Origin: Bacillota bacterium
GTDB lineage: Bacteria > Bacillota > Limnochordia > DTU087 > JAAYGB01
Assembly (NCBI GenBank): GCA_012727955.1
Contig: JAAYGB010000008.1
Span: 70,637-134,636, forward strand
Length of the DNA: 64,000 nt
Direction of reading: 5' to 3'
In this document: positions 32,445-54,518 of the stretch, piece after piece
Position numbering within the stretch: the first letter of the stretch is position 1
Layout of the letters: each line of letters starts with the position of its first letter
Translations under genes and position numbers: made by a program
Notes under the pieces: generated by a model
Databases searched by the model: none
The model's input: the letters and a program-made list of their open reading frames with translations, nothing else
What the model was told of the DNA's origin: nothing

Positions 32445-33287
32445 TTATATGCCATCGCCCAGGAAAACCGGTCCTAAGAGAACCAAGAGCAAGGAGGGAA
32501 AGACAAACAGAAGTAAAGGAAACATGATTTTGATAGGTGCCTTGCCAGCCTCCCCTTCGGCAGTAGCTGACTGCTTCATTCGGCTTTGGTGGGCCACAAC
32601 CCCCAAAATACTGCCTATGGAGGTGCCCAGCTTCTGTCCCTGAATTAGAGTAAGCACAAAGGAAGTCACATCGGGATGATCAAGTCTGTCGGCCAGGGAC
32701 CTTAGTGCCTGTTCCTGGGATGTACCCAAGCGGATTTCCTGCAGCACTCGACCCATCTCCCGATACAATGGTCCCCGATCGGCAAAGCCAGCAACAACAC
32801 CGAGGGCACCCTCAAAGGATAACCCCGCCTCGGTAGCAACCAGCATCAGATCAATTACCCGGGGCAAGGATTGCTGCACCTGTCCTTGCCGTTTTCTGTA
32901 CAGGCTAGACAAATACAGATCCGGGACAAAGAACCAGATACAGCCGAACACCGCGGCCAGGATGAAGTCACCGGCTATCACTCCTAGAATGATACCCAGA
33001 AGAGCAAAGGATACCTTTGCACCCACCACCGTTGAATAGGACAAATTGCTTAACCCAGCCTTGAGGATTTGCTGTTCCACATCGGATTTTCGGGGCCACG
33101 AGAACCACCGAGTATAGTGCCGCCCTACCGAACTGGCCCAGGCCAGCAAGTAGGCTCCTAAATTGGGCCTCTGTTCCCTGTTACCCTGGACAAACCTCCT
33201 CCACCACTTGAGACTCAAGGTCCAGGCCAGGGATTGCACCACAGCGACGACAACTAGAGCTCCAGTGCAGGCAATCAGATATTTCAT
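32445..33287 (-). CDS. tadC: Tad pilus assembly inner-membrane protein TadC (T2SSF domain)
   Basis: T2SSF-type polytopic membrane protein; last gene of the tad cluster. Confidence 0.75.
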   Translation of the reverse strand: MKYLIACTGALVVVAVVQSLAWTLSLKWWRRFVQGNREQRPNLGAYLLAWASSVGRHYTRWFSWPRKSDVEQQILKAGLSNLSYSTVVGAKVSFALLGIILGVIAGDFILAAVFGCIWFFVPDLYLSSLYRKRQGQVQQSLPRVIDLMLVATEAGLSFEGALGVVAGFADRGPLYREMGRVLQEIRLGTSQEQALRSLADRLDHPDVTSFVLTLIQGQKLGTSIGSILGVVAHQSRMKQSATAEGEAGKAPIKIMFPLLLFVFPSLLLVLLGPVFLGDGI

Positions 33288-33309
33288 ACCTATTCCACAG
33301 CCTTCCCGA

Positions 33310-34137
33310 CTAGTAGCTCAACTGCGAAATTCGATGAACCATCACCAATCCCACCACCTCCAGGACTGCCGCCAGCCCAAGGAGCACTCTTCCCAGGGGC
33401 CGGTGAAACAAGGGAGCTACATATTCCGGCATCATTTTAGACATCACCATTAGCAAAATCACTGGAAGCAAAGCCACTACTACCGCGGTTAGCCGACCTT
33501 GGGCCGTCAAGCTGTGTAACTTGTCTGCCAGGCGATGGCGCTCACGGATGGTGGCAGCAACGGTTTCCAAGATTGCCGGCAGATTACCACCGGTCCTGCG
33601 CTGAATAGCTACGGCCATCACCACGGTTTCAAAGTCCTCAGACTCCATCTCCACAGCTAACTGCTCCATTGCCTCAGTCACGTCCACTCCAAGATTCACC
33701 CTGCTCACCATGGTCTCGAAGGCCGTGCCCAAGGGTTGGGGCACTTCTCTAGCCACCATCGCCAAGGCTTGCACCAGGCTAAATCCGGCGGTCATCGCAT
33801 TGCCCACCAGACCTAATGCGTCGGGAAGCTGCTGCTCCATACGCTTTTTCCGTCGGGCTGCCATCCAGGCTTTCAGAAACCTCTGACCAACGAAGCCCCC
33901 AGCTCCCAAAAGCAAAGACAGGAAGGGGCTGGCCATGACCATCCCCATGACAGCCCCCACCAGCCCAAGGGTCACAGCCAAAACCCGGTCTCGACTTAGT
34001 TTAGCTGCCAGGGATAGGCCCCTGCGATCATGCCTAGTCCCGCTCCCTTGCCGATGCCCCTTCCTAGTTCTGGCTTCCATTAGCAATAGGCTCCAAAGCG
34101 CCAATCCACCGAGACTACAAAGCAACAACCGCATCAT
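33310..34137 (-). CDS. tadB: Tad pilus assembly inner-membrane protein TadB (T2SSF domain)
   Basis: T2SSF fold. Start ATGATG overlaps the upstream stop (ATGA coupling). Confidence 0.75.
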   Translation of the reverse strand: MMRLLLCSLGGLALWSLLLMEARTRKGHRQGSGTRHDRRGLSLAAKLSRDRVLAVTLGLVGAVMGMVMASPFLSLLLGAGGFVGQRFLKAWMAARRKKRMEQQLPDALGLVGNAMTAGFSLVQALAMVAREVPQPLGTAFETMVSRVNLGVDVTEAMEQLAVEMESEDFETVVMAVAIQRRTGGNLPAILETVAATIRERHRLADKLHSLTAQGRLTAVVVALLPVILLMVMSKMMPEYVAPLFHRPLGRVLLGLAAVLEVVGLVMVHRISQLSY

Positions 34138-36269
34138 CGGGCAGACACCGAATCCCGTGTCTCGGCAGGCCAAGGCAATCCCATGGCAAGAAAGTCAGCC
34201 GCCGTTTGGCTGCGGGAACTGGTTTGAACAAAGTCTCCTTGTACACCTAACTCCTCATCATAGCCGGTCTGCTGGAACCTAAACAGCTCCCGGAGCATCA
34301 CGTGCCCCTCCTCAATGCCCGTTACTTCAGCAATGGTCAAGACCTTCCGTGAACCATCTTTGAGTCGGCTTTGGAAGATTATCACATCGATGGCAGAGGC
34401 AATCTGTTCGCGAATTGCCCGCAGGGGAAGGTCCACCCCTGCTAACAAAATCATCGTCTCCAAGCGACTGACACAGTCCTGGGCACTGTTGGCATGGATC
34501 GTGGTCAAACTTCCATTGTGGCCGGTATTCATCGCTTGCAGCATGTCGATTACTTCATCGGAACGGCACTCGCCGACTATAATCCGATCCGGTCTCATTC
34601 TGAGGGCGTTCTTCACCAGTTCCCTGATAGTTACTTCACCCTTGCCCTCGACATTGGCAGGCTTGGCCTCAAGCCGACACACATGCTCCTGCATCAGCCT
34701 CAACTCTGCCGCGTCTTCGATGGTCACAATCCTCTCATCGGCGGGAATAAACCCCGACAAAACATTGAGCAGAGTTGTCTTTCCCGAGCCGGTACCTCCG
34801 GCAATAATGATGTTTTTCCGAGCCAACACACAACACTGAATAAACTGGGCCATGGCGTCGTTGAGAGAGCCCATCGCGATCAGATCGTCGACGGTAAAGG
34901 CCTGACGGGCAAACTTGCGAATGGTCAATATGGGGCCATTGAGAGCCAGTGGCGGAATAATGGCATTGACCCTGGAACCATCGGGAAGCCTTGCGTCAAC
35001 CATGGGACTACTTTCATCGATTCTTCGGCCCAGGGGCCCGACAATTCTTTCAATTACTTGCGACACTGCCATATCGCTGGCAAAGGTCAACGGCGTCTTC
35101 TGCAATTTCCCCTTAGTCTCGATATAGATCTGTTGACTTCCATTGACCATAATCTCGGTCACAGAGTCATCGGCTAGCAAGGCCTCTAGGGGTCCCAACC
35201 CCAGTATCTCATCGGTCAACTCAGCGATTAGGTTGTTCCTTGCCTTTTCAGATAGCGCCCCCTCCTGCCCTTGTAATTCCCTCAGGCAAAGACGGCGAAT
35301 CTCATCTCGCAGCTCCTGGCTGGCCGACAACTCCTCCCATGGCACAGACAGATCCCACTGAGAGGCTAACAACTCCTGGACTATCCTCTGGTGCAACTGA
35401 GACTTTAGTGCCGGAACCCCGGCAGCCGACGACAGCGGGGTTCCTTCCTCGTCACCACGCCTTCTCAAGTTTCTTCGTCGTCGTTTGCGTCTCCGGTATT
35501 TTTCCAGGAGGGAGACGGATTTTGCCGGTCGAGGCGAGACCGCAAGTTCTTGAGTTAGATAGTCAAGACTGCGCACAATGGCCGATTTTCCATAGGTTCG
35601 AGAGAAAAGGCATCGCTTCTCCAAAGCAGTGGCCAGCAGGTCTTCATCTTCATTGGCAACCTCAAGGGATTCCACCTCCAACACCCTTTTCACCTGAGCC
35701 GCCACCTCCGACGCGGTGGACTCGGGAACTCGATTGACCACGCAAGTGATGGGACCCACACCTCCGGCCGTCAATTCCTGCAGCTGTAGAGCTGCTGCCC
35801 GCAGTGACAGGGGGCTCGGGGTCGTAACCAGGGCCAATCGATCGGTCAAACTTAGGGCAGACATGATCGGCAAACTCAACTCGTGGCCGAGATCTAGGAC
35901 TATGTAGGGGTAAATTTGACTAAGCAAGTGGATCAGCTTTTCCACATCGGCGCAGGTTGTTTGCTGCCAGACAACCTCGTCTGCCGGGCCTGACAGATGA
36001 TGAATCTTCCCATCGGCAGCGGTTACCATATAATCGGCAATGGCTTGCGTTTGCCATAGACTTTGATCCTGCCAACACTCCGTTACCGAACGACCTACTT
36101 TGATTCCCAGAACTGCCTCCATGGTCTTACCGGGATCCCAGTTCAAGGACAAGATGCAAACTGCTTCATCGCTGTGATCGCACAAGAGTCCCGCGAAGCC
36201 TGCGGCCAGAGTGGTAGTGCCCACTCCACCCTTAGCCCCCAGCCAGCCGATAATCCTTCCCAAGGTCAA
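34134..36269 (-). CDS. Fusion of a TadZ/CpaE-like ParA-MinD-type domain (N-terminal) and the TadA/CpaF secretion ATPase (C-terminal)
   Basis: The N-terminal 270 aa carry a deviant Walker A, GAKGGVGTTTLA, that lacks the second lysine. A polybasic linker RRRKRRRRNLRRR follows. The C-terminal 400 aa are a VirB11/CpaF ATPase with GGTGSGKTTLLN Walker A and Asp/His boxes. Probable start TTG 36269 with GGAGGTG RBS. Confidence 0.8.
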   Translation of the reverse strand: MTLGRIIGWLGAKGGVGTTTLAAGFAGLLCDHSDEAVCILSLNWDPGKTMEAVLGIKVGRSVTECWQDQSLWQTQAIADYMVTAADGKIHHLSGPADEVVWQQTTCADVEKLIHLLSQIYPYIVLDLGHELSLPIMSALSLTDRLALVTTPSPLSLRAAALQLQELTAGGVGPITCVVNRVPESTASEVAAQVKRVLEVESLEVANEDEDLLATALEKRCLFSRTYGKSAIVRSLDYLTQELAVSPRPAKSVSLLEKYRRRKRRRRNLRRRGDEEGTPLSSAAGVPALKSQLHQRIVQELLASQWDLSVPWEELSASQELRDEIRRLCLRELQGQEGALSEKARNNLIAELTDEILGLGPLEALLADDSVTEIMVNGSQQIYIETKGKLQKTPLTFASDMAVSQVIERIVGPLGRRIDESSPMVDARLPDGSRVNAIIPPLALNGPILTIRKFARQAFTVDDLIAMGSLNDAMAQFIQCCVLARKNIIIAGGTGSGKTTLLNVLSGFIPADERIVTIEDAAELRLMQEHVCRLEAKPANVEGKGEVTIRELVKNALRMRPDRIIVGECRSDEVIDMLQAMNTGHNGSLTTIHANSAQDCVSRLETMILLAGVDLPLRAIREQIASAIDVIIFQSRLKDGSRKVLTIAEVTGIEEGHVMLRELFRFQQTGYDEELGVQGDFVQTSSRSQTAADFLAMGLPWPAETRDSVSAR

Positions 36270-36309
36270 CACTGTCACCTCCGGCAATTTGTAGCTCTGC
36301 CTAGCTTTC

Positions 36310-38676
36310 CTACGGACCAGTGATACTGGGAGTCAAGATGATAACCAAATCTGACTGACTCGATTGATACTGCTCAGAGCGAAATAGCTGTCCCAAGATG
36401 GGCAAACTCCCCAACAATGGTACTTTGCTGATCATTTTCCGCTGCTCTTCTCCCAACAATCCACCAATGACAAGGGACTGACCGCTATCCATAAACACCT
36501 GAGTCTGTGCCTTGCGGACTCTGACCGCTGGAATTTGCACTCCATCGATGACTACGGCATTGTTCCAGTCCAGGAGACTAACTTCTGGTTCAAGCTGGAC
36601 ACATATTTTGTCCCCAACCAGTTCTCCAGAAACACTGAGCTTGACTCCATAGTCCCGCCATTCAATGACAGTCTCTTCTTCCGCCTTAACAGGAAGAGGA
36701 ATTTCTCCTCCGGCGAGAAAACTTGCAGTTTCACCGGAGGTAAAGACCAAGGTAGGAGCCGCCAGGGTACGTACTTTACCCTCTGCTGCCAGAGAGGTGA
36801 GGCTGGCCGTCAGTTCTCTGTTACCTAAAGTTAGGGGAACACTAACCGCCAACTCTCCCTCGGCAACCTGTAGCGCCCAAGAAGATGGAGGGGCACTATC
36901 GGAGGTAGCAAACCAGTTGACTCCAAGCTCTCGCAGGCTGGTGTCCTCAATTTCCACCACCCTGACCTGGACCTGAATCTGAGGCTTCACCGCAGACACC
37001 TGAATGGCACTAACCACTTTGGGAACCAACTCTTCTGCTAAGGATAGGATCCTATCCCTTTCCGCCTGGGAGCACTGTCCCGACAATAACACCATGTCAT
37101 CGACATAGGCCGCCTCTACTCCTTGTGGAAGAACGCCATTTAGATACTCCTGAACCCTCTGGTCGATGCCATCGCTGACAACGGATAGGGCATCAAGCCA
37201 CTGGGGATGAAGGTTGGAGATCACCTTGGCGACGTGGTCGTAGGTGGCCCGGGAGACCTGCCCCATGGCCAGGACCTCGCCCCCCTCAAGGTACAAGACC
37301 TCAACGCCAGTTTCTGCCAATAGCTGCTCAAGAGGTAAGCCTGCTTTCAGGGCTTTATTTTGCACCCCAACGGCATTAATGACAGGGTAGTCTAGGACAT
37401 CGACCAGCTGCTGCAATCGCTCCCGCTGTCCCTCTCTGGAAACGGTACCCAGCAAGATGACGGCTGAGTCCAGGGGCTCCACAACTACTTGCTCATACCC
37501 CCAGGTCTGGATAATTCGATTCAGTGTCTTGACAATTGACCTTTGGTCTATCCTTGGCTCCTTGGGCGATTGCACCAACAGACCATTAATCACCTTCGGC
37601 GCAAAGGCAGCGGCGATCTTCTCCGCCACCTCTGCCCGTTCCGGGCAGCTAACCTGACCATACAGTAACAGGCCTTCATCCACTACCTCGAGCTTTACCT
37701 CCGGCATCGCCAGAATCCGGGACAGGCGGGACAAATCGATACCGCCTTCCTGGCGCTGGTGATCTAACTCCCGATTCTTTCCCAACTGCCAGATCCTAGC
37801 CGGGGCAACTTCAACACCGTCTACTACAGGACCATATTGCTCCGCGGCCTTGCGCAGGGCCATCCTTTCCGCTTCGCTATCTACAGCCCCCCGGAGAACT
37901 AGCAAGTTGCCCACCCGCTGAACCCAAGCCCGAGCAAGACCCAGCTCAACGGGAAGCCGCAGTGCCTCTTGCCAGCTTTGATCCTCTACCGCCACCATCA
38001 TGACGGGGGTCAATCCCAGGTGAGTGGCCAGCTCCTTGAGTGCAGGGATATCCTCGGCCACAGCTACCGTGCCGCGGATCAACAAGACATTCTCAGCCCG
38101 CTGGAACTCTAGCTGGGGAAACAAGGAGCTGGTCAGCCGGGCAAAGGCCCCTTCCGCCGCGGCATAACTGGATTCTGCCGTAGTTGCCTTGGTAACGGTT
38201 AAGTCCAGTGTATCGGGCCACAGGGTTTGTAAGGCTTTTTCCAGCATCGAGCGACTTGACTGATCGACTTCCCCGGAGACAATCAAGGTAGTGCCTACCC
38301 ATGTAAACTGACAATCTGAGCCAACTACTTGCATCAGTTCCTCCAGCGACGGGCGGGGCTTGGGTAAGACATTGACCCGGGAACTTATCCGATCATCCCC
38401 CGTCCAGACAACCAATGTCGTTGACCCAAAGCCCTTGCCATTGAGAAGGAACTCATCCCGTCCAGACACCACCACATCGGCTACAGTCTCATCGCCGACA
38501 GCCACGGTGGTCAACCCCGGCACAGGAAAGACCTGGGACTCACCGACGATGAGCTCAATTTCTCCTGGCAGACTACTGGCTTCCGCCCAGCTGCCGGCAA
38601 TCGCTATCAAGAGACTGAGACAACTAATCAGTCTCCACAACGAAGACCTGAGAACCCCGGATGACGGTAATATCAT
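36310..38676 (-). CDS. cpaC: CpaC/RcpA-family secretin carrying seven tandem BON-like domains
   Basis: Signal peptide, then a pilus-formation N-terminal domain (IELIVGESQVFPVPGLTTVAVGDETVADVVVS...GKGFGSTTLVVW). Seven repeats of about 60-75 aa follow, with pattern VxVVxEPLDSAVILLGTVSxEGQRERLQQLVxVLDYPVINAVGV. The C-terminal secretin domain ends ...KVPLLGSLPILGQLFRS. GGGGAGGGAG RBS. Confidence 0.8.
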   Translation of the reverse strand: MILPSSGVLRSSLWRLISCLSLLIAIAGSWAEASSLPGEIELIVGESQVFPVPGLTTVAVGDETVADVVVSGRDEFLLNGKGFGSTTLVVWTGDDRISSRVNVLPKPRPSLEELMQVVGSDCQFTWVGTTLIVSGEVDQSSRSMLEKALQTLWPDTLDLTVTKATTAESSYAAAEGAFARLTSSLFPQLEFQRAENVLLIRGTVAVAEDIPALKELATHLGLTPVMMVAVEDQSWQEALRLPVELGLARAWVQRVGNLLVLRGAVDSEAERMALRKAAEQYGPVVDGVEVAPARIWQLGKNRELDHQRQEGGIDLSRLSRILAMPEVKLEVVDEGLLLYGQVSCPERAEVAEKIAAAFAPKVINGLLVQSPKEPRIDQRSIVKTLNRIIQTWGYEQVVVEPLDSAVILLGTVSREGQRERLQQLVDVLDYPVINAVGVQNKALKAGLPLEQLLAETGVEVLYLEGGEVLAMGQVSRATYDHVAKVISNLHPQWLDALSVVSDGIDQRVQEYLNGVLPQGVEAAYVDDMVLLSGQCSQAERDRILSLAEELVPKVVSAIQVSAVKPQIQVQVRVVEIEDTSLRELGVNWFATSDSAPPSSWALQVAEGELAVSVPLTLGNRELTASLTSLAAEGKVRTLAAPTLVFTSGETASFLAGGEIPLPVKAEEETVIEWRDYGVKLSVSGELVGDKICVQLEPEVSLLDWNNAVVIDGVQIPAVRVRKAQTQVFMDSGQSLVIGGLLGEEQRKMISKVPLLGSLPILGQLFRSEQYQSSQSDLVIILTPSITGP

Positions 38677-39472
38677 GTCTCCCTCCCCTTCTTGCCTCTT
38701 CTTTCTGCGATGGCACTGCTGGGGTCCCGTCTAACTGGAGCAGTGACTCCAGGGTTATCGCCGAAGTCACCCTCCCGGCTAGGGAATCAGCGGCTGATCC
38801 CAAGGAAACTACCCGCAGCTGACCAAAGGCGTCGGCCAGTGCCAAGCGATGGACGGTAACATCATCCACCGACAGAACCAGCTGAGTGGTCTCCGAAAGG
38901 CCAGGATAAGACAAAGGCGCCCCCTCACCGTAGTCACTGCCTAACACATCGACTACCTCGACTTGACTGGCAATCACTACACTCTGCTCCGAAGCATCGA
39001 TCCGGGCGGGGAAGATCCCGATGATATCCACCAACTGTCCCCGCTGGAGATGACGGGCCTGGCGGGTCGGAACAGAAACGACAAAATGCTTACCTCCTGG
39101 CAAACCGGAGGAATCCCCCTCCCGCTGGTCATCCTCATGGGCAGCAAATTCTAGATGGTCTCTGGTGAGCACCGAACCCGCCGACAAGTCGGTGGCGGTA
39201 ATCATCCCTGCTACCACCAATCCATCGATCCAGCCCAGGGGCAATTGCGCCACCGGCCGAGTCTCCAAGAGGATGTGATCCCCGGTGATTGTAGTCCCCG
39301 CGGCCACATCCTCGACCAACACTGCAACCCGAGCTACCACCCCTTCTCCCGTCGACTCCAGCTGAGCCAGGTAAAAGTAGAGCATAACCGCAAAGACCAG
39401 AGCCAACACTCCCGCTACCCAGGGTTTTCGTAGGTAGGACGGAATTCCGCGGATCAGAAGGGAAGAGGCCAT
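38624..39472 (-). CDS. cpaB: Flp pilus assembly protein CpaB/RcpC (SAF domain)
   Basis: N-terminal TM followed by a SAF-like domain (VLVEDVAAGTTITGDHI). Directly upstream of the secretin, which it overlaps by 53 nt. Confidence 0.7.
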   Translation of the reverse strand: MASSLLIRGIPSYLRKPWVAGVLALVFAVMLYFYLAQLESTGEGVVARVAVLVEDVAAGTTITGDHILLETRPVAQLPLGWIDGLVVAGMITATDLSAGSVLTRDHLEFAAHEDDQREGDSSGLPGGKHFVVSVPTRQARHLQRGQLVDIIGIFPARIDASEQSVVIASQVEVVDVLGSDYGEGAPLSYPGLSETTQLVLSVDDVTVHRLALADAFGQLRVVSLGSAADSLAGRVTSAITLESLLQLDGTPAVPSQKEEARRGGRHDITVIRGSQVFVVETD

Positions 39473-40587
39473 GGCAACTCATCTCTGATGTCAATCTCAG
39501 GCCCGGCAAAGGTATAGCCCATAATCACCGTTCCTTCTGGACCGCTGATTGCCCCAAGAAAACACACGTGGCGCTCCCGGAAGTAGACGCCAAAATCGAA
39601 GTCGGTAATTTCCCCCAGCGATTTAAGTACCTCCCGGTCCCCCCCGAATATCTGGTTAAAGCCATGCCCCATGTCCTTCAGCCGTGTTGCCGCATCCTTG
39701 AGGAGTTCAGGATTCAGGAAGGGAAGCCCCACCCAACCCTCTTGAGCCAATCGTTGCCGATACCAATGAGTGACAGCCGCAAAACTATCTCCAGACTTCA
39801 TCATGACTAAGGTTGCTTCGTTCAGAAACCCACTCCGGTTGGGAGGTCCCTCGACGCGGTCTAAAACGATTTTTAGCACGTCAGAGCCCCGTGGATAGAT
39901 AGGCAGCACCAACCTCTGCAGGTACTCTTGCGGTGGAGTCAGATGGGTACCATTTCCGGCAATGACCGTCTTTACCAAGGAGACAATCTTATCATCGTCA
40001 TCGACATCGTCGTAGTCGGGGTAGCTATCCGGCGGGAGTATGGCCCGCAGTTTCGGGTCGTGATCCGGATTGGCATACACCTGCCATTCAATGGTGTATC
40101 CAGGCCCCTTAGCCCGCCGGGAGTCCACCACTATGTAACGCATTACTTCCTTCGCCTCTTCCAGAGACAGCGGCTCGGTCAGATAGGGATCCTTTTTTGC
40201 TTGCTCGTAAATGTATTCCGCATTCTCCTCCACCCAATCATAGGCTTCTACCCGCAGTGCTCCACGGGAAAAGTGGTTTCGCCAATGGCGGGCCGCCCTT
40301 TCTGCCGGTATGGTCATGGGCATCCACAACTCATATCGCCAGACATCATCCTCGAAAAACCAGCCACCCACCGAGAAAAGCATCCCATCGGGGTGAGGTA
40401 AGTCCACGCCTAAGGGTGCTGCCATGAGTGCCTCGAAGGTTAAGCACAAAGCTATCCCCAGCGGGAAAATAAGTCTACCAAGGTACCGAGCAATGGAACA
40501 CCATAAGCGTCGGATTTCATTTCTTCCCGGAGAGCTACCTTTTCTCCCAGTAAATGCTGAAACATGGGCATAACGGGAAAGTCGCAA
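39454..40587 (-). CDS. Hypothetical protein embedded in the tad operon (single hydrophobic segment, acidic DYDDVDDDD stretch)
   Basis: Long ORF with codon usage matching its neighbours and no recognisable motif. Start uncertain: the ORF-track GTG 40626 and my preferred TTG 40587 (GGTGGTG RBS) both overlap the 3' end of the upstream tadE-like gene, by 175 or 136 nt, in another frame. Confidence 0.4.
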   Translation of the reverse strand: MRLSRYAHVSAFTGRKGSSPGRNEIRRLWCSIARYLGRLIFPLGIALCLTFEALMAAPLGVDLPHPDGMLFSVGGWFFEDDVWRYELWMPMTIPAERAARHWRNHFSRGALRVEAYDWVEENAEYIYEQAKKDPYLTEPLSLEEAKEVMRYIVVDSRRAKGPGYTIEWQVYANPDHDPKLRAILPPDSYPDYDDVDDDDKIVSLVKTVIAGNGTHLTPPQEYLQRLVLPIYPRGSDVLKIVLDRVEGPPNRSGFLNEATLVMMKSGDSFAAVTHWYRQRLAQEGWVGLPFLNPELLKDAATRLKDMGHGFNQIFGGDREVLKSLGEITDFDFGVYFRERHVCFLGAISGPEGTVIMGYTFAGPEIDIRDELPWPLPF

Positions 40588-40913
40588 GATATCACCACCC
40601 GATCCATTGAAAGAGTTCGTCTGCACACCACTTCGTAGTGCAGTCCCGGCAACGCAGAATTACTGTTGAGGAAGTTCTCGACCTGGCTAACGGCCTCACC
40701 CGCGGTCCGGCTAGCCACCAACCGAATACCTTGTCTAGCTGCCATCGCCATCAGAATCTTGGTGTGGACAATGGCACCAAACTGAATCATCGCAAAGATG
40801 ACAAACAGCAGCAGCGGCAACACTATGGCCATTTCAACCAAGGCCTGTCCATTCTCGCTCCCTGCCCTCAGACTCAACAAGAGCCCTCTCCCCTTTGTTG
40901 CTGAAATTGTCAT
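40452..40913 (-). CDS. TadE/TadF-like pseudopilin
   Basis: TadE-like N-terminus GQALVEMAIVLPLLLFVIFAMIQFG. Confidence 0.7.
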   Translation of the reverse strand: MTISATKGRGLLLSLRAGSENGQALVEMAIVLPLLLFVIFAMIQFGAIVHTKILMAMAARQGIRLVASRTAGEAVSQVENFLNSNSALPGLHYEVVCRRTLSMDRVVISCDFPVMPMFQHLLGEKVALREEMKSDAYGVPLLGTLVDLFSRWG

Positions 40914-40921
40914 GCCCAGGG

Positions 40922-41668
40922 CTAATCTTTTTCTTTGTCCTTCTCCTTGTTCTCCTGATTGAGCTTCTCGCCGAAATAATTCCTCACCCAGTCCACCCCC
41001 TCCCCAATGCCACCGGCATGGAATTTGACCAGGCTCGCCTTGAAGTCAGGCCAAACCAAGCCGCTACCGTGGACCGCTGACTCCGAGATTGCCACCATCA
41101 CCCCACCCCTATCGGACTTGTCCCTCAACTTACTAAGCAGGGGTAAAGGTTGTCTAACCGCAGCCCCACCCATAATTATGAACCGCTTGCCGTAGGGTAA
41201 GTTATGAGTTCGTCGCTGGGCGTCCACCATGTACTCCTTCCAAAACATCCACCAACGCTTTTTCGGCTCTCTCACCTCAAGATCCGGCATCGCCACCCCT
41301 CCGAGGAAATTCAACGGCACTACCACCGCGGCTCCATTGCGAAGCCCTGTTTCCGTCGCGACGAGAATGGCCAGGACAGGAGCGCTGGCGACTACCATGA
41401 TCTGCGCTTGTTTCGCCATCTCCCTGTGGGCAGGTTCGGTGGCCGAAACACGGGCCCAATTAAGCTGCACTACTAAGTTCAAACAAGAAGCTAGACAGGC
41501 TCCGCCGGCTTGGGCACTGGCGTCCACGGCATTGGCTAGCCGAATCTTAGCGACCATGGTCTCCCCGAGATAGTACACCATCACCGTGGCCAGCATCAGT
41601 ACCGCCACTGCCACCGCGGCCATCACCATCACTTGCCCATCTTTAGCTGTAATGATCTTGCTAATCAT
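40922..41668 (-). CDS. TadG-like pilus assembly protein
   Basis: N-terminal TM plus Tad_N-like segment (VMVMAAVAVAVLMLATVMVYYLGE...LANAVDASAQAGGA). Lys/Glu-rich C-terminal tail. ATGA overlap with the upstream gene. Confidence 0.5.
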   Translation of the reverse strand: MISKIITAKDGQVMVMAAVAVAVLMLATVMVYYLGETMVAKIRLANAVDASAQAGGACLASCLNLVVQLNWARVSATEPAHREMAKQAQIMVVASAPVLAILVATETGLRNGAAVVVPLNFLGGVAMPDLEVREPKKRWWMFWKEYMVDAQRRTHNLPYGKRFIIMGGAAVRQPLPLLSKLRDKSDRGGVMVAISESAVHGSGLVWPDFKASLVKFHAGGIGEGVDWVRNYFGEKLNQENKEKDKEKD

Positions 41669-42189
41669 AGGAAAAACCGTCCCAAATGCCTTAACCCGGG
41701 GATGGACTCGAAGAACCGACCGAAGATGTTGCTAGAATACATTCTGGCGTTTTCCTGGGGCAGCGAATAGGTGACCTGACTCTGTCCCGTAGCATCCTCT
41801 ACCATGGACAGCTGCAGACCAAACCAACTCATTTGGCCTGAGAAAACTCGCTTGACGGTGCTGAGTAACCAGGGCTGCGTACGAGTGACGGTGACCACAA
41901 TGTCCTTGCCCTGCTTCTTTACCGATCCCGTCAAGATCAGACCGCGAACTCCCGAGCCCCAACCGTTGATCACTCTCGCTACAGGAAGTAGATAACTTGA
42001 GGATGGATTGTGTAACACTGCTCGGCGGGCCTCCTCGTAGGCACCGTACTTGACCAGCATCCCATCCAGCAGATGCAAACTCATGGCAAATCCTCCCCAC
42101 AGGACTAACATCACTACCGGCAAGGCAATCACGAACTCCAGCACTCCCACTCCCTCTTCCGAGCGCCAACCGTACACAGCAATTGCCAC
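41665..42189 (-). CDS. TadE-like pseudopilin
   Basis: EEGVGVLEFVIALPVVMLVLWGGF TadE motif. GTG start, or alternative GTG at 42177. Confidence 0.7.
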   Translation of the reverse strand: MAIAVYGWRSEEGVGVLEFVIALPVVMLVLWGGFAMSLHLLDGMLVKYGAYEEARRAVLHNPSSSYLLPVARVINGWGSGVRGLILTGSVKKQGKDIVVTVTRTQPWLLSTVKRVFSGQMSWFGLQLSMVEDATGQSQVTYSLPQENARMYSSNIFGRFFESIPGLRHLGRFFL

Positions 42190-42194
42190 CTCCG

Positions 42195-42803
42195 TTAGCG
42201 TGATACCCCCTGAAGACTAAGGATGATAATCCCACACAAGCTGATCCAGAATCCCAGGGGAACACTAATTCCCAACACCTGGCCTTCCATACCCAAGGCG
42301 CAGGATGCCATCCGTCGCAATAACTGTTTCACCTGGCCCCGTTGCCGGGCAATTATCAGCACATGGATGCCGGAGACTATGGCACCCCATACCGCAATCC
42401 GCAGAGCAACTTCTAGTGGCACCAACACACCCAAGCAAGCCAGGAGCTTGACATCGCCTCCTCCGATGCCTCCCCAGCGATACACCACACAGAAGGGCAA
42501 GGCCAGGACAAAGCCTCGAACCAAGGCCCCAAAGCCTGCCAGCCAGCCACCATCGGCAAGGTTCAGCACCAGCCCCAGTATGAGCACCGGAGCTAGGACC
42601 CCATTGTAGATCCGCCGATACCGCCAGTCAGTATACGCGACGATGACCAAAAACCCCAGGGTCAACAGCCATAGTCCATCGAAACCACCTGCCTCACTCC
42701 CGAACTCTCCAGGGATGGAAAAAGGGGCAAAGCCAATGGCCCTGCCCCTCCAAAAGGGTGCCGAATACCGTTGCTCCATGCCCCAGGTTAACACACCAGC
42801 CAT
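42195..42803 (-). CDS. cpaA: Flp prepilin peptidase CpaA/TadV (A24 aspartic peptidase)
   Basis: DWRYRRIYN and GGGDVKL motifs carry the two catalytic Asp. The N-terminal extension in the ORF is questionable. Confidence 0.8.
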   Translation of the reverse strand: MAGVLTWGMEQRYSAPFWRGRAIGFAPFSIPGEFGSEAGGFDGLWLLTLGFLVIVAYTDWRYRRIYNGVLAPVLILGLVLNLADGGWLAGFGALVRGFVLALPFCVVYRWGGIGGGDVKLLACLGVLVPLEVALRIAVWGAIVSGIHVLIIARQRGQVKQLLRRMASCALGMEGQVLGISVPLGFWISLCGIIILSLQGVSR

Positions 42804-42880
42804 GCCCTTCGAGAGTTATGTGATTTTTTGATTTTTGTTAGATAGTCAACAACCCAACTAAGTATCAACTTACGCCATCG

Positions 42881-43048
42881 TCAACCGCCGATGGTTTCAG
42901 CTAACTGAAGGAACTTCCCCGATATACTGCTTCCCAGAACGCGGACGGCCCCCAGACCCACTACAGCAATCAGTGCCGTCAGCAGTCCGTACTCGGCCAT
43001 GCTTTGTCCGCTTTCGTCCTGCCACAGTTCTCGGAGAAATGCTCGCAT
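42881..43048 (-). CDS. flp: Flp/Fap family pilin (55 aa; below ORF-track cutoff)
   Basis: Manual translation gives MRAFLRELWQDESGQSMAEYGLLTALIAVVGLGAVRVLGSSISGKFLQLAETIGG. The G/QSMAEY Flp processing motif sits at mature positions E5 and Y6. GGGGGT RBS. Confidence 0.75.
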   Translation of the reverse strand: MRAFLRELWQDESGQSMAEYGLLTALIAVVGLGAVRVLGSSISGKFLQLAETIGG

Positions 43049-43108
43049 CATCCTACCCCCTTTCCCCGTGAACTAGCACCCTTATTGGCAAAGTAAATCT
43101 GTATTTAA

Positions 43109-43300
43109 CTAGAACACATTAACGTAGTAAATCAGCTCTAGAATCATGCGGTCACACATCTTCAGTAGTACCCCCTTCATCTTCTCCGACCACAAGACAA
43201 AGGGAATTGCCACCACAGCCAGAAGCAAGGCGTATTCAGCAACACTTTGCCCCCCTTGGTCCAGCAACAGCGAGGCTGCAGAGACCTTTATTCTTGCCAT
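43109..43300 (-). CDS. flp: Flp/Fap family pilin (64 aa)
   Basis: MARIKVSAASLLLDQGGQSVAEYALLLAVVAIPFVLWSEKMKGVLLKMCDRMILELIYYVNVF, with G/QSVAEY motif. This is the C-terminal part of ORF-track 43109..43483, restarted at ATG 43300. Confidence 0.75.
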   Translation of the reverse strand: MARIKVSAASLLLDQGGQSVAEYALLLAVVAIPFVLWSEKMKGVLLKMCDRMILELIYYVNVF

Positions 43301-43334
43301 CGCCTTCGACCTCTCTTCTTCTGGGTTCAACCAC

Positions 43335-43363
43335 ATTATACTCGGTGCGCCGTACATAGTCAA
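43335..43363 (-). promoter_or_regulatory. Consensus sigma-A promoter driving the flp-tad operon
   Basis: Minus strand TTGACT, a 17-nt spacer, then TATAAT, about 35 nt upstream of the first flp start. An A/T-rich UP-like tract lies immediately upstream. Confidence 0.6.
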
Positions 43364-43384
43364 GCGGAATTTTACTTTTTTTCG

Positions 43385-43425
43385 CAAAAAAATGCTCGGC
43401 TGGACTTCTCGTCCTCCGCCGAGCG
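43385..43425 (-). terminator. Terminator-like hairpin after rpe (minus strand)
   Basis: GCTCGGC(17-nt loop)GCCGAGC followed by ATTTTTTTGCG. Confidence 0.4.
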
Positions 43426-43445
43426 TTACTAGCAGCGCTTTCTTG

Positions 43446-44147
43446 TTACTGGTTCCCTTGACAGGCGAAACGCAGATCAGCAATGGTGCGATCCCGATGG
43501 GCGCTGCGGAAAATCGAGGAACCTGCTACCAATATGTTGGCTCCCGCTTCAACCACCAATGGAGCTGACACCAGGTCAATTCCCCCATCGACCTGAATGT
43601 CCACCTGCAGCTTCCGCTCCATAATTATTCTCCGCAATGCCCTAATCTTGGAAACCATCCCAGGGATAAACTTCTGGCCCCCAAAGCCAGGATTGACGGT
43701 CATGATCAGCACCTGATCAAGGTCCTCCAGGATATACTCCAGGACGTCCAAGGGTGTTGCCGGGTTTAGGGCAACGCCAACCCTAACGCCCAGAGCCTTG
43801 ACCAATCCCACAGAGCGGTGCAGATGAATGCAGGCTTCCGCTGACAGAGTCAAGGCAGTGGCACCGGCCTTAACAAAATCCTCAACATAACGATCGGGAT
43901 CGGCAATCATCAGGTGTACATCCAGGGGCTGATCCGTAAACTTGCCAATGGCCTCTACAACTCCTGGACCGAAGGTGATGTTGGGAACAAAGTGTCCATC
44001 CATCACATCAATATGTAACATGTCCGCTGCAGACACCGATGCGATCTCTTCTCCGAGCCGCATAAAATCCGCAGCCAGCAAAGAGGGGGCGATTTTGACA
44101 TCGGTCCCCCTCGAAGCATTATCTGAGTTAGTATCTGTTTTCTTCAT
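43446..44147 (-). CDS. rpe: Ribulose-phosphate 3-epimerase
   Basis: IAPSLLAADF...HIDVMDGHFVPNITFG...DGG motifs. Confidence 0.9.
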   Translation of the reverse strand: MKKTDTNSDNASRGTDVKIAPSLLAADFMRLGEEIASVSAADMLHIDVMDGHFVPNITFGPGVVEAIGKFTDQPLDVHLMIADPDRYVEDFVKAGATALTLSAEACIHLHRSVGLVKALGVRVGVALNPATPLDVLEYILEDLDQVLIMTVNPGFGGQKFIPGMVSKIRALRRIIMERKLQVDIQVDGGIDLVSAPLVVEAGANILVAGSSIFRSAHRDRTIADLRFACQGNQ

Positions 44148-53675: not shown

Positions 53676-54518
53676 TCAATTGGCCACTAATTGAAAGCGC
53701 ATTCGATCCACCAGTTTTGCAATAATGAGGGAATTGGTGGGGAATTTGCCCTTGGCGGTAGAGCCGGTGAGTTCCTGCAGGTATTCTCTGTTACCGTGCT
53801 CCCATGCCGCGATCACGGCATTTCTGATGGCAGCCTCCACTCCACCGGCGGTGGTCTTGTACTTCTCCGCAAGCTTCGGGTACAATTCCTTAGTCAGTGA
53901 ACCGCCTAGGAGAGTGTTGTCCTGCACTAATAACAGCACAGCATCCCGCAGGTAGTTGTAGCCTTTAAAATGGGCAGGAATACCCATATTATGTAATAGT
54001 CTTGTCACAGCGATCTCACAATCCTGCTCCGAGGGAGGATTGTGTACCCCAGGCCAAGTCGGTTCCTGTTTCTCCAAACTTCGGTATGATTGGCTCGTTC
54101 GATAGGATTGATGAGTTGAGGTCGAGGACCGCTGTGTGCCCGAGGAGCCATCATCGGCGAATTGGCGAATTCTCTCCGCCAGGACCTCCATATCGAAGGG
54201 TTTGACAATAAAATAATCGACATCTAGCTCAGTGAAACGACGAATGATATCCTCCCTGCCAAAGGCCGTCAGCACGATGATCCGAGGCCTTTTTTCCAAA
54301 TTTAGAGTGTCTAATTTCTCCAACACCCCGATACCATCTAGATGCGGCATTGTCACATCTAAGATCACCACATCGGGCTGGTGGGCTTCAATCATCACCA
54401 GAGTCTCTTCGCCGTCGGGAGCGATGCCGACAACAGTCATTCCTGCAACTTCTACTAGAAACTGTCTTAAAGTGTTACATAAACCCAGATCATTGTCCGC
54501 TATCAGTATTTTTAGCAC
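53676..54518 (-). CDS. spo0A: Sporulation master regulator Spo0A (receiver domain plus Spo0A_C DNA-binding domain)
   Basis: Receiver region ILIADNDLG...VVILDVTMPHLDG, and a C-terminal Spo0A-specific region AIRNAVIAAWEHGN...KFPTNSLIIAKLVDRMR. Start GTG 54518, 5 nt after an AGGAGGTG RBS. The ORF-track start is 13 codons upstream and lacks an RBS. Confidence 0.9.
   Translation of the reverse strand: MLKILIADNDLGLCNTLRQFLVEVAGMTVVGIAPDGEETLVMIEAHQPDVVILDVTMPHLDGIGVLEKLDTLNLEKRPRIIVLTAFGREDIIRRFTELDVDYFIVKPFDMEVLAERIRQFADDGSSGTQRSSTSTHQSYRTSQSYRSLEKQEPTWPGVHNPPSEQDCEIAVTRLLHNMGIPAHFKGYNYLRDAVLLLVQDNTLLGGSLTKELYPKLAEKYKTTAGGVEAAIRNAVIAAWEHGNREYLQELTGSTAKGKFPTNSLIIAKLVDRMRFQLVAN

Follow-up and report, generated by a model that had tools for sequence, protein, structure and literature searches.

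A TadZ/CpaE-like domain joined to the CpaF motor ATPase in a Tad pilus operon of a Bacillota bacterium

A single reading frame encodes a TadZ-like domain and the Tad motor

A window of 64,000 nt from the metagenome-assembled genome (MAG; contig JAAYGB010000008.1) of an uncultured Bacillota bacterium contains a gene in which a TadZ/CpaE-like domain and a full TadA/CpaF secretion ATPase form one polypeptide. All coordinates given here are positions in this window, and every feature that they locate lies on the minus strand. The open reading frame (ORF; 34134..36287, including the stop) is continuous over 717 codons, from a mechanically called TTG at 36287 to a TGA at 34136-34134 that was read from the sequence. 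A first-pass annotation of the window had proposed such a fusion and had left the strand unstated; the uninterrupted frame, the domains, and the slot that the gene occupies in its operon all agree with that proposal. The explanation that we favor, and consider probable as a whole, is that of a fused tad motor gene with a TadZ-type scaffold built onto CpaF.

Diverged orthologs from independent assemblies share the fusion

Four ortholog clusters (P0007-P0010; 710-722 aa) align with the window protein at 62-71% identity over 97-98% of its length, in an uninterrupted frame. They derive from an NCBI MAG (GCA_041687495.1) and several independent Logan assemblies, and their loci are syntenic gene for gene, with prkC, rsgA, rpe, the tad locus, a thiamine transporter, and thiamine pyrophosphokinase. 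Together with the window protein they make up a clade that has conserved SL[LI]E[KR]YR as its junction peptide. Because these diverged orthologs from independent assemblies keep both frame and synteny, the fusion is genuine and is not a product of a frameshift or an assembly artifact. Re-inspection for a frameshift that would split the ORF, as advised by the first-pass annotation, finds none at the junction, where the four clusters and a 712-aa ENA gene call have the same frame, so the artificial fusion against which it had warned is not borne out.

The N-terminal domain is clearly under purifying selection. Its amino-acid identity across the clade is 51-65%, and the motifs GAKGGVGTTT, S[LF]NWDPG[KR]TME, and ECWQD are strictly conserved. 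Nonsynonymous divergence (dN) is 0.29 in this domain and 0.16 in the CpaF part, so that the former evolves about twice as fast. Synonymous divergence (dS) of the N-terminal domain is saturated (> 2.6), with dN/dS at or below ∼0.11; as dS is saturated or undefined at such divergence, the usable quantities are dN and, for one pair, this upper bound.

On a 79,856-bp contig from a different ENA assembly, this gene is broken into P0134 (435 aa) and P0136 (136 aa) by a frameshift within the CpaF C-terminal domain, after ...ALRMR near residue 565 and away from the junction. The break reflects either a mistake in assembly or a pseudogene at the strain level.

An intact CpaF motor is preceded by a ParA/MinD fold

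The full-length AlphaFold2 model (predicted local distance difference test, pLDDT, 87) comprises two well-folded halves with a low-confidence segment between them. The C-terminal 430 residues are, to judge from their sequence, a fully competent hexameric CpaF ATPase with every catalytic box intact. They begin with the three-helix bundle NTD1 (residues 287-362; 35202..35429), modeled as helices 287-308, 320-339, and 347-362, and continue with NTD2 and the C-terminal ATPase domain (CTD; residues 366-701; 34185..35192), which are recognized by Pfam T2SSE and by their invariant catalytic columns. This region contains the Walker A motif GGTGSGKTT(LLN) (residues 497-505; 34773-34799), the Asp box ERIVTIEDAAEL (34701-34736), the Walker B motif RPDRIIVGECR (34563-34595), and the His box TGHNGSLTTIHAN (34488-34526), each placed by its motif coordinates. 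In a 57-sequence alignment (A2), residues G497, G498, G500, G502, K503, T504, T505, E524, E528, D567, E573, H590, and H598 are invariant. T2SSE (PF00437) matches residues 363-639 with E = 4.9e-66 and 223.3 bits, against a cutoff of 24.9, and a family profile recovers the CpaF structures 9E24 and 8RKD from the PDB at 1e-170 to 1e-172 (E = 2.8e-172 for 9E24). The match to NCBIfam TIGR03819 (TadA family; E = 1e-101, 338-340 bits) does not reach the cutoff of 373, a shortfall without bearing on CpaF membership, the model being that of a conjugal-transfer-associated subfamily.

The N-terminal domain, of ∼250 aa, is predicted to adopt a ParA/MinD fold of the TadZ/CpaE type over residues 10-250 (35538..36260), an assignment that draws on AlphaFold2, Foldseek, and stand-alone relatives. 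The AlphaFold2 model of this domain, built from a 62-sequence alignment, has a mean pLDDT of 94.7. Foldseek matches it best in the PDB to 3EA0 (E = 5e-18), followed by FlhG, MinD, and FleN (to E = 1e-12), and phmmer against the PDB likewise places 3EA0 first (E = 2.9e-10). Despite sub-threshold Pfam scores, the prediction of a clean ParA/MinD fold is solid. Of the two families that the first-pass annotation had expected from a domain search, T2SSE was thus found and AAA_31 stayed below its cutoff (22.9 versus 27 bits).

A first search with residues 1-261 was word-indexed and hence biased toward the motif. It returned proteins of 380-430 aa that combine a receiver (REC) domain with a ParA domain and carry G[AS]KGGVGTT[TA]; JGI gives two of these the name “pilus assembly protein CpaE.” The search was repeated exhaustively by phmmer against 1.84 billion cluster representatives, giving 1430 matches at E ≤ 1e-3, two of which, both from the query’s own clade, reach ≤ 1e-30. 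The next-best matches are mostly 375-430 aa long and align from about residue 125-160 onward, the REC+ATPase architecture of CpaE/TadZ, and the stand-alone relatives have PF00072 within their first ∼130 residues. P0126 has GAKGGVGTTTLAVNFAGLLG where the window protein has GAKGGVGTTTLAAGFAGLLC. An unrelated ATPase family, the other doubt raised by the first-pass annotation, finds little echo among these nearest relatives, most of which have the architecture of CpaE.

The position of the gene points the same way. In three unfused Bacillota tad loci (L013-L015), from Halanaerobacter jeridensis and two Firmicutes MAGs, the gene order is rcpC, secretin, cpaE (REC+ParA, 400-437 aa), cpaF, tadB, tadC, and in two of the three the gap between cpaE and cpaF is 1 and 20 nt. 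The fused N-terminal domain and motor fill exactly this cpaE/cpaF slot after the secretin gene. Between secretin and motor gene there is no separate tadZ/cpaE, and no second ParA-like gene turned up when the 64-kb window was searched by tblastn with ParA-like queries. From the operon slot and from nearest relatives with CpaE architecture, we think it likely that the domain is of the TadZ/CpaE type. The receiver-like (ARD/REC) domain itself is absent: the Walker A-like motif begins at residue 17, which leaves too little room for one, and the secretin stop lies 22 nt 5′ of the ORF. The module would then be the ATPase half of TadZ/CpaE alone, with the receiver-like half gone. Other fused proteins likewise have a Walker A-like motif within their first ∼35 residues, which suggests that the fused architecture generally uses the ATPase half on its own.

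The Walker A-like motif is of a kind common in TadZ/CpaE

The Walker A-like motif GAKGGVGTTT (residues 17-26; 36210..36239) keeps the signature lysine, Lys19, and has Thr24 in place of the P-loop lysine. It is identical in P0007-P0010 and in stand-alone CpaE-like proteins, and K19, G20, G21, V22, and G23 are invariant or nearly so in alignment A1. In the switch-I segment SLNWDPGKT (residues 47-55; 36123..36149), Ser47 and Asn49 stand at the positions of MinD Asp38 and Asp40, by alignment to an E. coli MinD sequence that served for residue mapping only; S[LF]NWDPG[KR]T is conserved throughout the clade. The Walker B-like strand YIVLDLGHE (35880..35906) retains Asp132, nearly invariant in A1. 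The segment VVNRV (35727..35741) supplies Asn185-Arg186, N185 being nearly invariant in A1 and R186 in A2; this position is conserved in ParA/MinD-type ATPases and would have a role in base binding.

Where the P-loop lysine would stand, Thr occurs in 48 of the 147 nearest cluster representatives, Lys in 41, Ala in 17, Val in 15, Arg in nine, and Ser in six, and in about two-thirds of the nearest relatives of the domain the residue is other than lysine. By this comparison, threonine there is ordinary for the TadZ/CpaE neighborhood. The published TadZ Walker A consensus is K/RGGXGXS/T (bioRxiv 10.64898/2026.07.08.737194), and KGGVGTT (residues 19-25) fits it, as (K/R)GGxGx(S/T), without a P-loop lysine. 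The replacement of the lysine by threonine, which the first-pass annotation described as degenerate, is therefore real, although it is typical of TadZ/CpaE rather than a new degeneration. Among fused proteins the picture differs: the P-loop lysine is kept, as KGGVGK[ST], in 67 of the 74 that bear the motif, and Thr occurs only in the window clade and in P0109. The clade is set apart by Thr24, by the missing switch-I aspartates, by an Arg-rich segment described below, and by its Bacillota host.

The domain has neither the xKGGxGK[ST] motif nor the switch-I aspartate by which MinD, FlhG, and ParA are recognized, with T24, S47, and N49 at the positions concerned. Denise et al. (2019) describe the atypical Walker A of TadZ as retaining ATP binding with low ATPase activity, and the deviant motif of CpaE binds ATP for dimerization (Caulobacter study, mBio 2026). 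We suggest that the N-terminal domain probably binds ATP and dimerizes while hydrolyzing little or none of it, since T24, S47, and N49 replace catalytic residues whereas K19, the glycine loop, T25/T26, D132, and N185/R186 stay. The non-catalytic module proposed by the first-pass annotation is therefore plausible, but a nucleotide-free one is not implied, TadZ being reported to bind ATP.

The Arg-rich segment appears to derive from the N terminus of CpaF

The halves are connected by a flexible segment, residues 251-286 (SPRPAKSVSLLEKYRRRKRRRRNLRRRGDEEGTPLS; 35430..35537), that contains 14 Arg/Lys and four Asp/Glu. Within it lie the Arg-rich stretch RRRKRRRRNLRRRGDEEG (residues 265-282; 35442-35495), placed by motif coordinates, and an overlapping Arg-rich amphipathic motif, SLLEKYRRRKRRRRNLRRR (residues 259-277; 35457..35513), that is conserved in the clade alignment with the consensus SL[LI]E[KR]YR[RQ]R.[RL]RR; the remainder of the segment is variable. 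AlphaFold2 gives residues 251-290 a pLDDT of 45-58 and places a low-confidence helix at 260-278. Over 18 residues this helix carries a net charge of +9, and its hydrophobic face (V, L, L, Y) is small. Arginine richness is confined to the window clade and occurs in none of the other fused proteins inspected.

After the ParA fold the window protein reads ...AVSPRPAKS-VSLLEKYRRRK..., and its VSLLEKY corresponds to the MSLLERL with which stand-alone CpaFs start. The S-L-L-E codons are TCC CTC CTG GAA in the window and TCT CTC CTG GAG at the start of cpaF in the unfused locus L013, an identity of 10 of 12 nt. In the match list, 12 of the 20 stand-alone CpaFs start with S[LIVMF]xx[RKQ][LIVMFY], and three more with MSLLLQRL. 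The spacing from this motif to the LKxxhHxRhV helix, counted by eye, is ∼36 residues in the fusion and in stand-alone CpaF alike. MAFFT moved the N termini of stand-alone CpaFs to column 1 of the alignment, and homology at the junction is read from the motif counts, the spacing, and the DNA comparison. Given the S-L-L-E codon match and the ∼36-residue spacing, Val258 (GTC) is best read as the former cpaF start codon. The Arg-rich segment noticed in the first-pass annotation is present, then, but the “polyarginine linker” made of it there would be no separate linker: by these comparisons it is CpaF’s own disordered NTD0, made Arg-rich, with nothing added de novo. In Caulobacter, NTD0 of CpaF is disordered and dispensable for extension, and its deletion reduces retraction (CpaF structure paper).

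Starts of the form MSLLxR[LI] are common in stand-alone CpaFs (P0075, P0089, P0097, P0100, P0113, P0115, P0116, P0120, and others), some of which are labeled Firmicutes, Chloroflexota, or Halanaerobacter; the CpaF structure paper gives no function for the motif. The CpaFs of the unfused loci L013-L015 begin with MSLLERL or MSLKDRL, and MSLLKRI also occurs among stand-alone CpaFs.

The helix at 259-277 is weakly amphipathic, lies at a CpaE-tail-like distance past the ATPase core, and in a guided alignment coincides with MinD’s membrane-targeting helix. We considered whether it might be a retained membrane-targeting tail of CpaE and rejected this origin, because the CpaE tails of Bacillota are unlike it and cpaF starts are alike, in protein sequence and in DNA. 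The tails at loci L013-L015 (GLFSRLMSGMRKVK, GWLDKITKLLK, and ISARIFSIFTGG) are amphipathic and basic; further stand-alone CpaE tails read KKGFFQRFFNR and KPSLLSRYWGG. A function similar to that of the CpaE tail is possible.

Start codons and public annotation

A strong Shine-Dalgarno sequence, GGAGGTG (36282-36276), falls within the first codons after TTG 36287, and GTG 36272 and then TTG 36269 are located 3′ of it. As this sequence precedes both, GTG 36272 or TTG 36269 is likelier to be the true start than TTG 36287. The ENA gene call on the same sequence starts at GTG 36272 (712 aa; P0135), and the start of the ortholog P0007 aligns with TTG 36269. The Walker A-like motif is kept whole with any of the three candidate starts.

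The NCBI protein of identical sequence, NLV91261.1 (“Flp pilus assembly complex ATPase component TadA”), is only 576 aa long. It starts at Met142 (∼35862-35864), in the interior of the ParA fold, which it cuts in half; its length is an annotation choice and no evidence against the fusion. A practical warning to annotators is that the public NCBI annotation conceals the fusion. No credible candidate for an internal translation start emerged when the DNA of the linker was read.

Fused TadZ-TadA proteins are widespread

The 120 best database clusters (90% identity) for the window protein were surveyed. At least 74 of them are fused proteins of ∼700-790 aa in which CpaF comes after an N-terminal Walker A-like motif; their identity to the window protein is 38-45%, and the match covers > 90% of its length. 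Their sources are labeled Omnitrophica/Omnitrophota, “Deltaproteobacteria bacterium,” “bacterium,” or Bacillota, and their annotations vary between TadA, CpaF, and MinD. An “atypical TadZA fusion ATPase” of Bdellovibrio bacteriovorus is described in a July 2026 preprint, in which TadZ plus linker is both required and enough for binding the polar hub RomR, and whose authors say that a TadZ-TadA fusion had been noted before (bioRxiv 10.64898/2026.07.08.737194). The fusion is thus widespread and already described, and the window gene is a new, somewhat derived example of it. That TadZ and TadA are usually separate genes, as the first-pass annotation remarked, holds for loci L013-L015; the rarity that this implied, and that a survey of fusions was to check, does not survive at least 74 fused clusters in the top 120 and the Bdellovibrio preprint.

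In a neighbor-joining tree built on the CpaF domain from 113 sequences and 357 columns, the clade is monophyletic in 100 of 100 replicates and lies beside a large, mostly fused cluster. Its sister group is mixed in 73 of 100 replicates, consists of fused proteins alone in 14, and of stand-alone proteins alone in 13. Identity of the CpaF domain is ∼55-60% to fused and unfused relatives alike. Ranked by distance in the N-terminal domain, the 25 nearest sequences outside the clade are all stand-alone and the first Lys-type fused protein comes at about the 26th place, in a comparison biased by a stand-alone set that consists of the query’s best matches. A bolder proposal, which we regard as doubtful, is that the Bacillota clade represents an independent second TadZ-TadA fusion, in which a REC-less, hydrolysis-dead TadZ is tethered 1:1 and the SLLxR[LY] helix serves as a polybasic anchor to membrane or partner. 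If it were true, the protein would be a minimal self-positioning Tad motor, at 6:6 and not 12:6, whose polybasic anchor replaces both the lost amphipathic tail of CpaE and the REC-mediated outer ring, and a role would be assigned to the N-terminal motif of stand-alone CpaFs.

Two other architectures appeared in the survey. P0001, P0002, and P0004-P0006 (∼1150-1160 aa) have three tandem CpaF modules per chain, with three GGTGSGKTT motifs visible in P0002, and outscored true orthologs because they matched repeatedly; a pair of these chains might assemble into a covalently linked pseudo-hexamer. P0095, P0105, and P0107 (∼577-585 aa) are FHA-CpaF fusions (PF00498 + PF00437), built as is reported for KilF, and give a further case of a regulatory domain attached to the N terminus of CpaF.

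Comparison with known systems and a model for the fused motor

By description, the Bdellovibrio TadZA resembles the window protein in having a TadZ-like ParA/MinD region, a flexible linker, and TadA in one chain, encoded in a tad locus directly 5′ of tadB. It belongs to another phylum, the window gene coming from a Bacillota MAG, and the two differ in that RomR is the partner on the Bdellovibrio side and an Arg-rich linker is found on the other. KilF of the Myxococcus xanthus Kil system also carries an extra domain N-terminal to the Tad motor CpaF, but the domain fused there is FHA and not a ParA/MinD ATPase.

Stand-alone TadZ/CpaE proteins (3FKQ, C. crescentus CpaE, and A. actinomycetemcomitans TadZ) share with the N-terminal domain the ParA/MinD fold, a lysine-less Walker A motif, and a gene directly 5′ of tadA/cpaF. 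The window protein differs from them in lacking the ARD/REC domain that is the hallmark of crystallized TadZ and Caulobacter CpaE, and in being covalently joined to the motor, with no free C-terminal amphipathic tail. C. crescentus CpaF (9E24, 8RKD) corresponds to residues 287-701 as NTD1, NTD2, and CTD, and in both proteins a disordered NTD0 precedes NTD1; in the fusion, NTD0 has no free N terminus and forms an Arg-rich tether to a 250-aa ParA fold. The best PDB match, the Chlorobium tepidum ParA-family ATPase 3EA0 (template modeling (TM) score 0.76-0.83), is lysine-less too, with the P-loop KGGDGGS, but is a stand-alone single domain of ∼245 aa from structural genomics and has Asp where the window protein has Ser47. 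MinD, FlhG, and FleN are alike in fold (TM ∼0.75), in the signature lysine, and in the placement of the Arg-rich helix at the MinD membrane-targeting position, whereas their P-loop lysine and switch-I aspartate are missing from the N-terminal domain and their curated thresholds are unreached.

In the model that we propose, adjacent cpaE/tadZ and cpaF/tadA genes would have been fused in frame, with loss of the receiver-like half and of the C-terminal tail of CpaE. The CpaF part would power pilus extension and retraction through TadB/TadC. The N-terminal domains may form ATP-bound nucleotide-sandwich dimers with scarce or no hydrolysis, acting as a built-in scaffold for assembly or positioning and not as a second motor, and the ∼36-residue flexible tether would hold six TadZ-like domains, at most three dimers, around each CpaF hexamer. 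In the Caulobacter in situ model, six CpaE dimers form an outer ring around the CpaF hexamer at a ratio of 12:6, the REC domains bridge neighboring dimers, and the C-terminal amphipathic helix lies on the membrane (mBio 2026); an independent cryo-electron tomography study likewise puts CpaE in an outer cytoplasmic ring. The covalent tether may thus take the place of a separate, REC-linked CpaE ring. By analogy with Caulobacter CpaE, 12 per CpaF hexamer and REC-bridged, a REC-less fusion would impose 6:6, a change of ratio. The stoichiometric link between placement factor and motor foreseen in the first-pass annotation accordingly holds as 1:1 within the chain, but would not simply fix a ratio like the 12:6 of the Caulobacter model. 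More speculatively, the target of the Arg-rich helix may be anionic lipid of the membrane, or else a partner protein, much as RomR is bound by the TadZ and linker of Bdellovibrio; use of the helix as a substitute for the lost membrane-binding tail is the point of greatest mechanistic interest.

Of the cytoplasmic components of Tad systems, TadZ/CpaE is the one understood least, and its placement around the CpaF hexamer has been modeled only in 2025-2026. Natural fusions reveal which part of TadZ is needed beside the motor, the ATPase and not the receiver domain, and in what stoichiometry. A fusion termed “atypical” in Bdellovibrio is, by our survey, widespread. The Bacillota sub-lineage, with its combination of fusion, lysine-less TadZ motif, and Arg-rich tether, adds comparative material and leaves the general picture of Tad unchanged.

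Alternative explanations

Several observations weigh against the reading just given. The N-terminal domain stays below the cutoffs of curated models: AAA_31 at residues 11-164 (E = 8.8e-5; 22.9 versus 27 bits), CbiA (18.3 versus 25.4 bits), and TIGR03815, CpaE_hom_Actino (E = 7e-6; 25.5 versus 154.45 bits). Only a profile search brings up the E. rectale TadZ structure 3FKQ (E = 7e-15), and it is not among the 50 Foldseek matches listed, which are generic MinD, FlhG, FleN, and Soj. The receiver-like domain is absent; with the P-loop lysine and the switch-I aspartate both gone, Mg-ATP binding by the domain is not assured. A membrane-binding role for the Arg-rich helix, itself a guess, sits poorly with its small hydrophobic face and with a motif that, by the comparisons above, comes from the CpaF N terminus and not from a CpaE tail. 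The source sequence, finally, is a MAG. Some of these points could be taken to mean that a MinD/FlhG/ParA-type ATPase was recruited to the motor independently of TadZ/CpaE, which we consider unlikely. In NCBIfam, residues 1-276 match archaeal MinD (TIGR01969, E = 4e-11) ahead of the actinobacterial CpaE homolog model, with BcsQ, ParA, and MinD also present, and the top folds are 3EA0, FlhG, MinD, and FleN, not 3FKQ; the missing receiver-like domain would fit as well. Yet all these NCBIfam matches are weak and far under their cutoffs, the exhaustive search puts proteins of CpaE architecture nearest, and GAKGGVGTTT occurs exactly in stand-alone CpaE-like proteins. The P-loop lysine and switch-I aspartate that MinD, FlhG, and ParA need are absent, the domain sits in the cpaE slot of the operon, and TadZ/CpaE itself belongs to the ParA/MinD superfamily, in the FleN subfamily (Denise et al., 2019).

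That a sequencing or assembly error erased a stop or shifted the frame between tadZ and tadA has a negligible probability in our view. The MAG source, the 576-aa NLV91261.1, which does not show the fusion, and the frameshifted assembly with P0134/P0136 might be cited for it, but the NCBI start would halve the ParA fold and the frameshift near residue 565 is not at the junction, while the frame is the same in four diverged, syntenic clusters from independent assemblies and in the 712-aa ENA call, with SL[LI]E[KR]YR conserved at the junction. It is also very unlikely that cpaE was fused by accident and persists in the N-terminal domain as a decaying relic without function, leaving the CpaF part alone to matter. 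The loss of catalytic residues at T24, S47, and N49, the higher dN, and an isolated lineage, with two cluster representatives under 1e-30, could suggest decay; five diverged sequences without stop or frameshift, 51-65% identity at saturated dS with dN/dS at most ∼0.11, a compact AlphaFold fold, and strictly kept clade motifs speak for a domain maintained by selection. Just as improbable is the production of two proteins, the full fusion and a separately initiated free CpaF. A purine-rich GAGGAAGGA in the linker (∼35442-35450) and the internal start chosen by the NCBI gene caller would be its basis; the linker, however, has no in-frame ATG or GTG, its in-frame TTGs have no Shine-Dalgarno-like sequence upstream, CTG alone follows the purine-rich stretch, the former cpaF start is now GTC, and the NCBI start at Met142 is inside the ParA fold. 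We retain the reading of a genuine fusion of a TadZ-type scaffold to the Tad motor.

The tad operon and its surroundings

Most probably, the fusion serves as motor gene in a Tad (Flp, type IVc) pilus operon that is complete and lies on the chromosome. The operon, on the minus strand, comprises two Flp pilins, a prepilin peptidase, a TadG-like gene flanked by two TadE-like ones, an ORF of unknown nature, cpaB/rcpC, the secretin, the fusion, tadB, and tadC. The probable ATG of tadB (T2SSF; 33310..34137), at 34137, overlaps the TGA of the fusion as ATGA, and this overlap (34132-34137; tadB reads ATG ATG CGG...) suggests translational coupling; mechanical ORF calling stretches tadB up to TTG 34173. 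The tadC gene (32445-33287) follows directly after tadB. Upstream, the rcpA/cpaC-like secretin gene (36310..38676; 788 aa) ends 22 nt before TTG 36287 and carries T2SS-T3SS_pil_N, BON, and Secretin domains. A secretin in a genome labeled Bacillota implies an outer membrane, that is, a diderm Firmicute lineage. Secretins of related loci have 743-819 aa, and in Halanaerobacter (L014) the pil_N and Secretin parts are two short genes.

Two tandem Flp-type pilin genes (42881-43051 and ∼43109-43300) have the G/xxxxEY motifs GQSMAEYGLL and GQSVAEYALL; in orthologous loci the second is without a Pfam call. The ORF at 39454-40626 (up to 390 aa), between a TadE-like gene and cpaB, has a hydrophobic segment and no Pfam match. 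An unannotated gene of 296-314 aa occupies its place in orthologous loci, and it may be a lineage-specific Tad component.

The operon (32445-43483) is inserted between rpe and the genes for the thiamine transporter and thiamine pyrophosphokinase. Its surroundings are prkC, rsgA, rpe ... rpmB, asp23, a DAK2/FakA-like gene, degV, recG, rsmD, and coaD, which we take to be a classic Firmicute arrangement, and neither MinC/MinE nor a flagellar context shows up in the neighborhood read (24-46 kb). A tblastn search using the REC portion of a CpaE-like query gives a weak receiver-domain match (E = 5e-5) at 54198-54512, some 18 kb from the operon, presumably an unrelated response regulator.

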